Source of the DNA: Escherichia coli
GTDB lineage: Bacteria > Pseudomonadota > Gammaproteobacteria > Enterobacterales > Enterobacteriaceae
DNA length: 9,306 nt
NCBI RefSeq assembly: GCF_003334255.1
Contig: NZ_QOWU01000089.1
Direction: 5' to 3' (one strand)
Made by a program: the position numbers and the translations under genes. The notes beneath the pieces are model-generated. The model was not told the DNA's origin and did no database searches. It worked only from the letters and a program-made list of their open reading frames with translations. Of the stretch, positions 833-9,306 are shown in pieces (position 1 is the first letter of the stretch; each line of letters starts with the position of its first letter).

Positions 833-4193
<3,361 letters not shown>

Positions 4194-4202
4194 TGTGTTA
4201 AC

Positions 4203-4222
4203 GCCCGGCTTGCCGGGCTTTT
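4203..4222 (+). terminator. Intra-operon stem-loop plus T-tract between fecA and fecB (attenuator-like, rho-independent terminator structure)
   Basis: GCCCGG-CTTG-CCGGGC forms a 6-bp all-GC stem with a tetraloop (4203-4218), followed directly by TTTT (4219-4222), 10 nt after the fecA stop and about 16 nt before the fecB start. It probably gives partial termination that sets the fecA to fecBCDE ratio. Confidence 0.6.
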
Positions 4223-4237
4223 AGCTGGAATGTGATT

Positions 4238-5140
4238 ATGTTGGCATTTATCCGTTTTCTTTTTGCAGGCCTGCTGCTGGTGATCAGCCACGCCTTTGCC
4301 GCCATGGTTCAGGACGAACACGGCACGTTTACACTCGAAAAAACGCCACAACGGATTGTGGTGCTGGAACTCTCGTTCGCCGATGCGCTGGCCGCCGTGG
4401 ACGTCAGCCCGATCGGTATTGCCGACGATAACGATGCAAAACGCATCCTGCCCGAAGTGCGTGCGCACCTGAAACCGTGGCAGTCCGTCGGAACGCGCGC
4501 GCAGCCGAGCCTGGAAGCCATTGCCGCTCTGAAACCAGACCTGATCATTGCCGACAGCAGTCGCCATGCGGGGGTTTACATCGCCTTGCAGCAAATCGCG
4601 CCGGTACTGCTGCTTAAGTCCCGCAACGAAACCTACGCTGAAAATTTGCAATCTGCGGCTATCATCGGCGAAATGGTGGGTAAAAAGCGAGAGATGCAGG
4701 CACGTCTGGAACAACATAAAGAGAGGATGGCGCAGTGGGCCAGCCAGCTTCCCAAAGGGACACGCGTGGCCTTTGGCACATCACGCGAACAGCAATTCAA
4801 CCTGCATACTCAGGAGACCTGGACCGGCAGCGTGCTGGCCTCTCTGGGGCTGAACGTTCCCGCTGCGATGGCGGGTGCGTCCATGCCGTCCATCGGCCTG
4901 GAGCAACTGCTGGCGGTCAATCCTGCCTGGCTGCTGGTTGCCCACTATCGCGAAGAGAGCATTGTTAAACGCTGGCAACAAGATCCGCTCTGGCAGATGT
5001 TAACCGCCGCGCAGAAGCAGCAGGTTGCTTCGGTCGACAGTAACACCTGGGCGCGGATGCGCGGTATTTTTGCTGCAGAGCGTATTGCCGCTGACACGGT
5101 AAAAATCTTCCACCATCAGCCGCTTACCGTTGTGAAATGA
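4238..5140 (+). CDS. fecB: Periplasmic ferric citrate-binding protein FecB (ABC transporter substrate-binding protein), 300 aa from ATG 4238
   Basis: ORF with an N-terminal signal peptide (MLAFIRFLFAGLLLVISHAFA) and a body typical of class III periplasmic siderophore/citrate binding proteins. The ORF track starts at GTG 4232, but ATG 4238 has better spacing to a GGA(A) Shine-Dalgarno-like element at 4227-4230 and gives the 300-aa product. The stop overlaps the fecC start. Confidence 0.93.
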   Translation: MLAFIRFLFAGLLLVISHAFAAMVQDEHGTFTLEKTPQRIVVLELSFADALAAVDVSPIGIADDNDAKRILPEVRAHLKPWQSVGTRAQPSLEAIAALKPDLIIADSSRHAGVYIALQQIAPVLLLKSRNETYAENLQSAAIIGEMVGKKREMQARLEQHKERMAQWASQLPKGTRVAFGTSREQQFNLHTQETWTGSVLASLGLNVPAAMAGASMPSIGLEQLLAVNPAWLLVAHYREESIVKRWQQDPLWQMLTAAQKQQVASVDSNTWARMRGIFAAERIAADTVKIFHHQPLTVVK

Positions 5141-6135
5141 CCGCGATAAAACACCCGGTGCTGCTGTGGGGGCTTCCCGTTGCAGCACTTATTATTATTT
5201 TCTGGCTGAGTCTGTTTTGCTACTCGGCCATTCCTGTTTCCGGAGCAGATGCAACCCGCGCCCTGCTGCCTGGACACACGCCAACGCTACCAGAAGCGCT
5301 GGTGCAAAACCTTCGTTTGCCACGAAGCCTGGTCGCCGTTCTGATCGGCGCAAGCCTGGCGCTCGCGGGCACGCTGCTGCAAACCCTGACCCACAACCCA
5401 ATGGCCTCTCCTTCACTGCTCGGCATTAACAGCGGCGCGGCACTGGCTATGGCGCTTACCAGCGCGCTGAGTCCGACGCCGATTGCAGGCTATTCTCTGT
5501 CGTTCATCGCGGCATGCGGGGGCGGCGTGAGCTGGCTGCTGGTCATGACCGCAGGAGGCGGATTTCGTCATACCCATGACAGAAACAAACTGATCCTCGC
5601 GGGTATCGCGCTGTCGGCCTTTTGTATGGGCCTTACCCGCATCACCCTGCTGCTGGCCGAAGATCATGCTTACGGCATCTTTTACTGGCTGGCAGGCGGA
5701 GTGTCCCACGCCCGCTGGCAGGATGTCTGGCAGCTCTTGCCGGTGGTGGTCACTGCAGTCCCTGTCGTGTTGCTGCTGGCGAATCAACTGAACCTGCTCA
5801 ACCTCAGCGACAGCACCGCCCATACGCTGGGAGTGAACCTGACGAGGCTACGTTTGGTCATCAATATGTTAGTGCTGCTTCTGGTTGGTGCGTGCGTCAG
5901 CGTGGCAGGTCCGGTGGCGTTTATCGGTCTGCTGGTGCCACATCTGGCGCGCTTCTGGGCAGGCTTCGATCAGCGCAACGTACTGCCAGTGAGCATGCTG
6001 CTGGGGGCCACGCTGATGCTGCTGGCAGATGTACTCGCACGCGCGCTGGCCTTCCCCGGAGATCTGCCCGCAGGCGCAGTGCTGGCGCTGATTGGCAGCC
6101 CTTGCTTTGTCTGGCTTGTGAGGAGGCGAGGATGA
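5137..6135 (+). CDS. fecC: Ferric citrate ABC transporter permease FecC (FecCD/BtuC family), 332 aa
   Basis: ORF of 332 aa, highly hydrophobic with multiple predicted transmembrane helices and the FecCD-family signature region (GxxLAxxGxLLQ...NPxAxPxLLG). ATGA overlap with the fecB stop at 5137-5140 and with the fecD start at 6132-6135. Confidence 0.97.
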   Translation: MTAIKHPVLLWGLPVAALIIIFWLSLFCYSAIPVSGADATRALLPGHTPTLPEALVQNLRLPRSLVAVLIGASLALAGTLLQTLTHNPMASPSLLGINSGAALAMALTSALSPTPIAGYSLSFIAACGGGVSWLLVMTAGGGFRHTHDRNKLILAGIALSAFCMGLTRITLLLAEDHAYGIFYWLAGGVSHARWQDVWQLLPVVVTAVPVVLLLANQLNLLNLSDSTAHTLGVNLTRLRLVINMLVLLLVGACVSVAGPVAFIGLLVPHLARFWAGFDQRNVLPVSMLLGATLMLLADVLARALAFPGDLPAGAVLALIGSPCFVWLVRRRG

Positions 6136-7088
6136 AAATTGCGCTGGTTATTTTCATCACCCTTGCCCTGGCGGGCTGTGCGCTGTTATCACTCCATATG
6201 GGAGTGATCCCCGTGCCGTGGCGCGCGCTGCTGACCGACTGGCAGGCCGGACGCGAGCATTATTATGTATTGATGGAGTACCGACTGCCGCGCTTGCTGC
6301 TGGCACTGTTTGTCGGTGCAGCCCTCGCCGTGGCGGGCGTGCTGATACAGGGGATTGTGCGCAACCCTCTGGCATCACCGGATATTCTCGGCGTTAACCA
6401 TGCCGCCAGCCTGGCCTCTGTGGGGGCTCTACTTCTTATGCCGTCACTGCCCGTGATGGTGCTGCCGCTGCTGGCCTTTGCGGGCGGCATGGCGGGGTTG
6501 ATATTACTGAAGATGCTGGCAAAGACCCACCAGCCGATGAAGCTGGCGCTCACCGGCGTGGCGCTTTCTGCATGCTGGGCCAGCCTGACGGATTATCTGA
6601 TGCTCTCGCGCCCACAGGATGTGAACAACGCCCTGCTGTGGCTGACCGGCAGCTTATGGGGCCGTGACTGGAGCTTTGTGAAGATTGCCATCCCGCTGAT
6701 GATTTTATTTCTGCCGCTGAGCCTGAGTTTTTGCCGCGATCTCGACCTCCTTGCACTCGGCGATGCGCGCGCCACCACGCTCGGTGTGTCGGTGCCCCAT
6801 ACCCGATTCTGGGCTTTGTTACTAGCTGTCGCCATGACATCTACCGGCGTGGCCGCCTGCGGCCCGATTAGCTTTATTGGTCTCGTGGTGCCGCATATGA
6901 TGCGTAGCATCACCGGTGGACGTCACCGCAGACTGCTGCCTGTTTCAGCCCTGACAGGTGCGTTGCTGTTGGTGGTTGCCGATCTGCTGGCGAGAATTAT
7001 TCATCCCCCACTGGAGCTCCCGGTTGGCGTGCTGACCGCCATTATCGGTGCGCCGTGGTTTGTCTGGTTGCTTGTGAGAATGCGATAA
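6132..7088 (+). CDS. fecD: Ferric citrate ABC transporter permease FecD (FecCD/BtuC family), 318 aa
   Basis: True start is ATG 6132 (MKIALVIFITLALAGCALL...), preceded by GAGGAGG (6121-6127). The 488-aa ORF in the track (5622-7088) is the same frame read through upstream across fecC, out of frame with fecC. Paralogous to FecC (conserved ...RNPLASPDILG... motif). Confidence 0.96.
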   Translation: MKIALVIFITLALAGCALLSLHMGVIPVPWRALLTDWQAGREHYYVLMEYRLPRLLLALFVGAALAVAGVLIQGIVRNPLASPDILGVNHAASLASVGALLLMPSLPVMVLPLLAFAGGMAGLILLKMLAKTHQPMKLALTGVALSACWASLTDYLMLSRPQDVNNALLWLTGSLWGRDWSFVKIAIPLMILFLPLSLSFCRDLDLLALGDARATTLGVSVPHTRFWALLLAVAMTSTGVAACGPISFIGLVVPHMMRSITGGRHRRLLPVSALTGALLLVVADLLARIIHPPLELPVGVLTAIIGAPWFVWLLVRMR

Positions 7089-7856
7089 ATGACTTTACGA
7101 ACTGAAAATCTGACGGTCAGTTACGGGACAGACAAGGTACTTAACGACGTTTCACTCTCACTGCCAACGGGGAAGATCACCGCCCTGATCGGTCCTAACG
7201 GTTGCGGGAAATCGACGCTGTTAAACTGTTTTTCGCGGCTTTTAATGCCGCAGTCTGGCACCGTATTTCTCGGCGATAATCCCATAAATATGCTCTCATC
7301 GCGCCAGTTGGCCCGCAGGCTTTCGCTGCTGCCTCAGCACCATTTAACGCCAGAGGGGATCACAGTCCAGGAGCTGGTTTCGTATGGTCGTAATCCCTGG
7401 CTGTCACTCTGGGGGCGTCTCTCCGCTGAAGACAATGCACGAGTTAATGTCGCCATGAACCAGACCCGGATCAATCATCTTGCCGTTCGTCGGTTAACCG
7501 AGCTTTCCGGCGGTCAGCGCCAGCGCGCATTTCTGGCGATGGTCCTGGCCCAGAATACGCCCGTTGTATTACTTGATGAGCCAACCACCTATCTTGATAT
7601 CAATCACCAGGTGGACCTGATGCGGTTGATGGGCGAACTCCGGACTCAGGGGAAAACGGTGGTCGCTGTGCTGCACGACCTTAATCAGGCTAGCCGGTAC
7701 TGCGATCAACTGGTGGTAATGGCAAACGGACATATTATGGCGCAAGGCACACCAGAAGAGGTGATGACCCCAGGATTGCTGAGAACAGTATTCAGCGTGG
7801 AAGCGGAAATACACCCCGAGCCGGTATCTGGCAGGCCGATGTGCCTAATGAGGTAG
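7089..7856 (+). CDS. fecE: Ferric citrate ABC transporter ATP-binding protein FecE, 255 aa
   Basis: Walker A GPNGCGKST, ABC signature LSGGQRQR, Walker B VVLLDEPT and H-loop VLHDLN are all present. The start ATG immediately follows the fecD TAA (TAAATG at 7086-7091). Confidence 0.97.
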   Translation: MTLRTENLTVSYGTDKVLNDVSLSLPTGKITALIGPNGCGKSTLLNCFSRLLMPQSGTVFLGDNPINMLSSRQLARRLSLLPQHHLTPEGITVQELVSYGRNPWLSLWGRLSAEDNARVNVAMNQTRINHLAVRRLTELSGGQRQRAFLAMVLAQNTPVVLLDEPTTYLDINHQVDLMRLMGELRTQGKTVVAVLHDLNQASRYCDQLVVMANGHIMAQGTPEEVMTPGLLRTVFSVEAEIHPEPVSGRPMCLMR

Positions 7857-7918
7857 ATTGCACAGGCCGTAAGAACCAAACCACGACTGAATGAAACTGG
7901 ACTGGCGCCAGCAAGCCT

Positions 7919-7943
7919 GTTCAGACTGGGGCTGAACTTTTCC
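7919..7943 (+). terminator. Weak candidate rho-independent terminator downstream of fecE
   Basis: GTTCAG (7919-7924), loop ACTGGGG, CTGAAC (7932-7937), then TTTTCC (7938-7943), about 60 nt after the fecE stop. The stem is short and not GC-rich, so this is tentative. Confidence 0.3.
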
Positions 7944-8194
7944 GGACTCTGAAAGATTACCAATACTCATCGTCCATCCGCTTGCTTTAGGCTGACAGGT
8001 TCATAATCAACGCAAACCAGAGCTGTACAGGCTTGGGCGCGGCTTTCAAACCAGTCGTGATCACGGCAATCAATTTTGAACTCTGCTTAACGGACATTTC
8101 TGTATAACCCTTACGGCAACGAAAAACGCGAAGTTAAAATTTTAGAAACCCAAAAACGTGACATGACTAAGTTTAGATTTCAGGGGGGGAGATC

Positions 8195-8220
8195 AAAAAA
8201 TTTCGCTCTGTGCCAGAGCG
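8195..8220 (-). terminator. Candidate minus-strand hairpin with trailing T-run
   Basis: CGCTCTG-TGC-CAGAGCG is a perfect 7-bp inverted repeat (8204-8220). Read on the minus strand it is followed by AAA then TTTTTT (complement of 8195-8203). It could terminate a minus-strand transcript entering from the right. Unverified. Confidence 0.25.
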
Positions 8221-8413
8221 GACATTCACGGAGCTGGTTCATTACCAATGAGGTTGGGCTTTTGAGGATAAATCAATGATCAGACGCCAACGTAAATCAA
8301 AAGCAACCCTGGAACGGAATTGCTAATCCAGTTTCTGACCATCGATTTTTCTAAAAAGTGTGCGTTTGCTACTACTTAGGTAGGTGCAGCTTTCTTAATC
8401 ACCGGCAGCCACG

Positions 8414-8745
8414 TTATACAGGCCAGTTGATGGATCGATTGTTATCAATGATATCTTTATGAGTCGGTGTCTCACCCAGCTTACCGAAGCTGGCATAAAG
8501 TGAAGGCAGACGGGCCCGTCCTTCTCCCTTTTTCGCCAGAGGGAAAGCGCGAAGCATGGTGGCAGCCTCCCAGTCACAACAATAGGATGGTGTGCACGGC
8601 TGCTGACGCCATGATTCAGCGATAGAGCCGGAAAATACGGGGTCAAAGCCGGTATCATTAACCAGAGTCATCGTGACCTGTACTGCGGCTGGATGATCTC
8701 CTGCTACTGCAACTGCTAGGCGACCGCGGCTCCCTTCAGGTAGTC
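8414..8745 (-). pseudogene. N-terminally truncated ORF of unknown function abutting the IS3-family element end (about 110 codons of native sequence; frame stays open into the IS terminal repeat)
   Basis: Minus-strand frame ...LPEGSRGRLAVAVAGDHPAAVQVTMTLVNDTGFDPVFSGSIAESWRQQPCTPSYCCDWEAATMLRAFPLAKKGEGRARLPSLYASFGKLGETPTHKDIIDNNRSINWPV-stop (stop at complement 8414-8416). The track ORF 8414-8827 begins with a Met inside the IS end, so the native 5' part appears to have been replaced by the insertion. I do not recognise a family. Confidence 0.35.
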
Positions 8746-9232
<487 letters not shown>

Positions 9233-9239
9233 TAGAGTA

Positions 9240-9275
9240 AGAGGCAGGGCGTAGTCGGACTATTTCCCTGCCTCT
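9240..9275. repeat. Perfect 10-bp inverted repeat (AGAGGCAGGG ... CCCTGCCTCT) with a 16-nt spacer, just beyond the point where IS3-family homology ends
   Basis: Read directly: 9240-9249 AGAGGCAGGG and 9266-9275 CCCTGCCTCT are exact reverse complements, separated by CGTAGTCGGACTATTT. Confidence 0.7.
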
Positions 9276-9306
9276 CCTCCCCGAACCGGACGTGCACCTT
9301 TCAGCG

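Follow-up and report, generated by a model that had tools for sequence, protein, structure and literature searches.

What does the abrupt loss of insertion sequence (IS) homology at the right-hand end of this Escherichia coli stretch represent? The whole stretch of DNA that was analyzed, hereafter called the window, is 9306 nucleotides (nt) long. According to the annotation of genomes that are 99.8–99.9% identical to it, the plus strand carries fecI, fecR and fecABCDE; these are followed by a small hypothetical ORF and, on the minus strand, by a transposase remnant of the IS3 family (IS911-like). The small ORF, located between fecE and the IS end (8414–8671, minus strand), is annotated as hypothetical protein WP_000177057.1 in every sister genome that was inspected, K-12 among them. 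A preliminary description of the window noted that transposase-like sequence stops close to the right-hand end and that a perfect inverted repeat of 10 bp lies just beyond. It left the choice between the edge of a second mobile element that truncated the first, a deletion scar, a recombination site and a structured RNA element. We conclude with near certainty that window positions 9232–9306, read on the minus strand, are the 3′ end of the mobile group II intron E.c.I4 (class A, with a protein without endonuclease domain), inserted in sense orientation in orfB of the IS911-like element downstream of fecE. The suggested second mobile element does exist, and it is this intron.

The end of the IS homology is genuine, and three independent results agree in placing the break in the minus-strand IS911-like homology at 9231|9232. 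First, the alignment of K-12 BW2952 to the window covers positions 4171–9231 with 99.66% identity and ends at 9231. Past this point, K-12 continues its IS911 sequence (...CCAGA|TATAGGTCACATCACC...), whereas the window continues as ...CCAGA|GTAGAGTAAGAGG... Second, of 5426 complete E. coli genomes searched with a junction probe of 135 nt (window 9172–9306), 1079 contain a full-length match. Partial matches that comprise query positions 1–60 only (window 9172–9231) represent intron-free IS911/ISEc52 copies; those that comprise query positions 59/60–135 only represent the right-hand sequence joined to other IS3-family genes. Third, the match to Rfam family RF00029 has its 3′ limit at window position 9232. 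The break had thus been recognized correctly in the preliminary description, but its start at 9233 was set one base to the right of the actual boundary. Likewise, coding potential had been said to stop in all three minus-strand frames: the transposase homology ends indeed, but one minus-strand frame is open across the junction. No contiguous IS911 sequence runs through 9233–9306, and the junction is therefore real. As this IS911-type 3′ exon/intron junction is carried by the 1079 genomes mentioned above and is absent from K-12, the fec-linked IS911::E.c.I4 junction could be used as a lineage marker.

The nature of the sequence to the right of the break follows from its structure. In the window, E.c.I4 is represented by its last 75 nt only, and the full-length description is derived from a sister genome, E. 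coli ATCC 43896 (NZ_CP024278; L001), which shares 99.8% identity with the window in the corresponding region (2699 is added to an L001 coordinate to obtain the window coordinate). When the window alone is searched, RF00029 (Intron_gpII, domains V–VI) gives a 5′-truncated match with 37.9 bits (E = 3.5e-6), 2 bits below the Rfam gathering score of 40. The window-only match remains under this threshold because domain V lacks its first 10 nt, which lie beyond the window end at 9306. Once these are supplied by L001, the full model is matched at L001 6533–6619 on the minus strand, equivalent to window 9232–9318, with 64.9 bits (E = 6e-11). The full 34-nt domain V in L001 reads GAGCCGGAUGCGCU-GAAA-GGUGC-AC-GUCCGGUUC, with the AGC triad, the 2-nt bulge and the GNRA tetraloop all present, and the 24 nt of domain V that lie in the window are identical to it. 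The fold of the complete domains V–VI has a free energy of -48.2 kcal/mol (z = -6.45). In the predicted structure, the bulged adenosine lies 7 nt from the 3′ end of an intron terminating in AC, which corresponds to the canonical branch-point geometry (7–8 nt upstream, AY end). A search of the whole intron with the Rfam D1–D4 group II models gave no match at the E-value threshold; only the domain V/VI models and a chance match to a CRISPR-DR model (E = 0.9) were returned. All features are collected in Table 1.

Table 1. Features of the 3′ end of E.c.I4 and of the adjoining exon (window coordinates; RNA sequences are given in the sense of the intron).
Feature	Position	Strand	Composition or remark	Evidence
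3′ exon, being the 3′ part of the IS911-like element (IS3 family, annotated IS911/ISEc52-like)	8746..9231	-	C-terminal part of orfB and diverged right terminal inverted repeat	PGAP 'IS3 family transposase' pseudogene in near-identical genomes, translation, terminal-repeat alignment
3′ splice site, being the intron insertion junction	9231..9232	-	Last intron base 9232, first 3′-exon base 9231	K-12 empty-site alignment, probe split at query 60/61, RF00029 end, uninterrupted spliced exons elsewhere
Last 75 nt of group II intron E.c.I4	9232..9306	-	Remainder of the intron beyond the window end	Identical to the last 75 nt in L001 and in E.c.I4-2b of E24377A; RF00029, 37.9 bits
Terminal AC of the intron	9233-9232	-		
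Domain VI	9234..9280	-	15-bp stem (4 + 11 bp) split by one bulged A; 16-nt loop	Minimum-free-energy fold and Rfam consensus structure
Predicted bulged branch-point adenosine (T on the plus strand)	9238	-	7th nt from the intron 3′ end	Aligned with the bulged A in the CUAC consensus of RF00029; single bulged nt in the fold
Left arm of the inverted repeat	9240..9249	.	On the intron RNA, 3′ strand of the upper domain VI helix (CCCUGCCUCU)	
Right arm of the inverted repeat	9266..9275	.	On the intron RNA, 5′ strand of the upper domain VI helix (AGAGGCAGGG)	
Linker between domains V and VI	9282-9281	-	2 nt	
Domain V, 3′ 24 of 34 nt	9283..9306	-	CGCU, GAAA tetraloop, GGUGC, AC bulge, GUCCGGUUC	Rfam alignments, fold
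Domain V 5′ strand with the AGC catalytic triad	Would-be 9307-9316, past the window end	-		

Beyond the point that corresponds to the window end, L001 continues with ltrA on the minus strand and then with the N-terminal half of an IS3-family transposase. The intron runs from 8802 to 6533 on the minus strand of L001, is 2270 nt long and has the ends GUGUGC...CUCUAC. Its 5′ end, which lies beyond the window, is GUGUG in L001, L003 and L005–L008 and hence conforms to the GUGYG consensus. The encoded protein is an intact reverse transcriptase/maturase ORF of 502 amino acids with RVT_1 (2e-34) and GIIM (1e-10) domains and a TIGR04416 score of 341 bits (cut-off 300). Pfam detected only RVT_1 and GIIM in this 502-residue protein and no nuclease or HNH domain, which agrees with an assignment to ORF class A. 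In at least one near-identical genome, that of SCU-104, the ltrA of the same intron copy is disrupted by IS421.

Joining the sequences that flank the intron in L001 gives ...GTGACCTATA|TCTGGACGGG... and restores the reading frame. Many E. coli genomes contain the 401 nt of joined exon sequence in one piece and with 100% identity, and in K-12 BW2952 the E.c.I4 site of the orthologous IS copy at the fec locus is empty. The intron insertion is not accompanied by a target-site duplication, and no base is added or missing where the exons meet. This absence of lost or duplicated bases rules out both a deletion scar and a transposon end. Moreover, the other half of the IS resumes straight after the 2270-nt intron in near-identical genomes, so the IS is interrupted and was not truncated by a second element as initially suggested.

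These data bear directly on the alternative that the repeat is the terminal inverted repeat, or the edge, of another IS or of a MITE that truncated IS911. While the IS homology does stop abruptly at 9231/9232 with unrelated sequence beyond it, the inserted element encodes a reverse transcriptase/maturase instead of a transposase over its 2270 nt with GUGUG...AC ends. Both arms of the repeat fall within 36 nt at one end of the element only, 8 nt inside it, and have no partner at the other intron end; the two ends themselves (GTGTGC... and ...CTCTAC) do not match. Together with the exact exon join, the missing target-site duplication and the merely interrupted IS911, this makes an IS or MITE terminus extremely improbable. 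An abrupt change in homology would equally arise if a deletion, or recombination at a specific site, had joined IS911 to unrelated DNA, and the window does stop before the far side of such a join. Yet, a junction common to 1079 complete genomes, a missing IS half that is found exactly one intron length away in sister genomes and exons whose joined sequence exists elsewhere leave this explanation with hardly any probability. In addition, other IS3-family genes are joined to this intron end at the equivalent codon, which points to targeted insertion and not to deletion.

With the intron end established as such, the inverted repeat can be interpreted. Its two arms, AGAGGCAGGG (9240–9249) and CCCTGCCTCT (9266–9275), are perfectly complementary over 10 bp with a spacer of 16 nt, at exactly the coordinates originally given. 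It is the sole perfect 10-mer inverted repeat with a loop of 3–30 nt in the whole window of 9306 nt. Dinucleotide shuffles of the whole window contain on average 0.40 such repeats, with at least one in 25% of the shuffles, so that the repeat by itself is only mildly unusual for a scan of this extent. When the 75-nt segment itself is shuffled, such a repeat appears in only 0.135% of the cases. The minus-strand RNA of 9232–9284 folds with -26.7 kcal/mol (z = -4.6), and none of 200 shuffles folds as well. The repeat is the upper part of the 15-bp stem of domain VI of the group II intron, as both the Rfam match and the minimum-free-energy fold indicate, and the earlier suggestion of a structured RNA element hence applies as well. 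A weak Rfam match of the window to mir-9201 (17.6 bits, E = 0.38) is a chance hairpin match. It is very unlikely that the hairpin is instead an ordinary intrinsic terminator, such as one serving minus-strand ltrA or a plus-strand gene: it is indeed stable, G+C-rich and located some 40–90 nt downstream of the ltrA stop codon, but the stem is not followed by a run of U (T in the DNA) on either the minus strand (UACUCUAC|UCUGG) or the plus strand (CCUCCCCGAACC), a terminator scan of 8900–9306 on both strands returned 0 sites, and the hairpin fits the domain VI consensus including the bulged A.

The intron in the window can be assigned to a known copy of E.c.I4. The L001 intron is identical to E.c.I4-2b of strain E24377A (NC_009801 4848623–4850892) at 2267 of 2270 positions (99.87%), and window 9232–9306 matches E.c.I4-2b at 75 out of 75 positions. 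The proteins of both introns have the same accession (WP_001189123.1). In E24377A, E.c.I4-2b also lies within an IS3-family remnant beside fecE. The intron of the window is therefore the same orthologous insertion that has already been catalogued at the fec-linked IS911 locus, and as such it is already known. The original description of E.c.I4 is reportedly that of Dai and Zimmerly in 2002, and the name E.c.I4 is the one used in the Zimmerly database. E.c.I4-2b is listed at NC_009801 4848623–4850893 (Leclercq and Cordaux 2012, PMC3522654, Table S3); this copy is present in E. coli E24377A and 55989, and a further one, E.c.I4-2a, in ED1a (PMC3522654). The class A assignment of the E.c.I4 ORF, without D/En region, has likewise been published (PMC3552965).

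The IS911-like element that hosts the intron shows several signs of decay. Its right terminal repeat at 8746–8772 has diverged, reading TGTTGTGGTCAACTAAAACTGGCCTCC compared to TGAAGTGGCACACTGAATTTGGCCACC at the left end in L001, with the terminal TGAA changed to TGTT. Given this terminal change, the copy is probably immobile, judging by its sequence. At position 9161, the window has a T where L001 has a C, which is the sole difference between them in 8700–9306. On the minus strand, this change turns the Trp codon in the stretch ...KPVGWAMS... of the IS911-like orfB into a TAG stop, a further inactivating lesion in an IS copy that was already frameshifted. With regard to annotation, the PGAP pseudogene 'IS3 family transposase' spans L001 6055–6542, equivalent to window 8754–9241, and thus extends around 10 nt into the intron. 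A feature for the intron RNA is absent from the annotation of the RefSeq records examined.

Other mobile elements have entered the same region. In K-12 BW2952 (L009 5434–7179), the fec-linked IS911-like copy is interrupted further upstream by IS30, and in E24377A an IS66 element is situated between the IS remnant and fecE. The fec-linked locus is a hotspot of nested mobile elements. Elsewhere, one of the compared E.c.I4 copies (L008; NZ_CP062203.1 3028705–3035231) has chimeric exons, with a 5′ exon that is IS911-like (WCGDVTYI) and a 3′ exon that is ISEc24-like (RTWQGWLYLAVVIDLFARN). This chimera suggests recombination between intron copies residing in different IS elements. An IS629/IS911 chimera has been reported in strain 55989 (PMC3522654).

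Copies of E.c.I4 that are more than 99.6% identical occur at the same codon position in four IS3-family genes, i.e., those of the IS911-like element, ISEc31, ISEc24 and one further member. In all four, the codon that comes after D(V/I/F)TY is split by the insertion behind its first base. We take this site to be the conserved region of IS3-family transposases that surrounds the first Asp of the DDE motif. The recurrence of one codon position across four genes supports targeted homing. Intron positions 263–269 (UGUGGGU) can pair, by Watson–Crick or G–U pairs, with positions -7 to -1 of the four targets in 27 of the 28 cells, and the next best 7-mer leaves 7 non-pairs. From its pairing potential with these targets, UGUGGGU is a candidate EBS1. 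For EBS2, the search returned several equally weak candidates (intron positions 59, 191, 277, 392 and 511). The minimum-free-energy and centroid structures of intron 1–673 differ widely; since this fold is unreliable, the EBS loops were not positioned from it. It is conceivable, albeit somewhat unlikely, that the G/U-rich candidate EBS1 is an adaptation: wobble pairing may read synonymous and near-synonymous codon variants in the surroundings of the first catalytic DDE Asp (D-V/I/F-T-Y-I/V), by which E.c.I4 would home into many diverged IS3-family genes and inactivate each of them at its catalytic core. Both the candidate EBS1 and this adaptive reading are derived from four targets only. The targeting of multiple IS by E.c.I4 as such has already been published: the intron has specific insertion positions within the IS3-like transposases of IS629, IS911, ISEc16 and ISEc31 (PMC3522654).

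By analogy with established group II intron biology, the following life cycle can be proposed. The intron RNA would splice from the transposase transcript as a lariat, aided by its own reverse transcriptase/maturase, with the 2′-OH of the bulged A at 9238 presumably initiating the first, branching step. The resulting RNA–protein particle would then reverse-splice into the DNA of intron-less IS3-family transposase genes, guided by EBS–IBS pairing. As the intron protein has no endonuclease domain, cDNA synthesis would probably be primed by the nascent strand at the replication fork.

As both the retroelement that ends here and the locus that it occupies are already catalogued, the value of this identification lies mainly in a correct annotation. 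More generally, a point at which IS homology is abruptly lost and a strong hairpin comes next can be the boundary of a group II intron. Compared to E.c.I4-2b, the intron of the window shares both the host gene (an IS911-like orfB) and the fecE-linked chromosomal locus, and nothing of substance sets the two apart, apart from the extra nonsense change at 9161 in the host IS of the window. Outside E. coli, the class A intron S.f.I1 of Shigella flexneri has an ORF that is 99% identical to that of E.c.I4 (PMC3552965, PMC4244168). With respect to the RF00029 consensus, the full domains V–VI, as seen in L001, have the AGC triad, the GAAA tetraloop, the AC bulge and the bulged branch A in common, but domain VI of E.c.I4 is longer, with an insertion of 10 nt on its 5′ strand. 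It is this extension that gives rise to the conspicuous 10-bp repeat. Among the experimentally studied bacterial group II introns, Ll.LtrB and RmInt1 have the same overall architecture and presumed retrohoming mechanism as E.c.I4, but belong to other ORF and RNA classes. RmInt1 resembles E.c.I4 further in that its protein lacks an endonuclease domain and its target is an insertion sequence.
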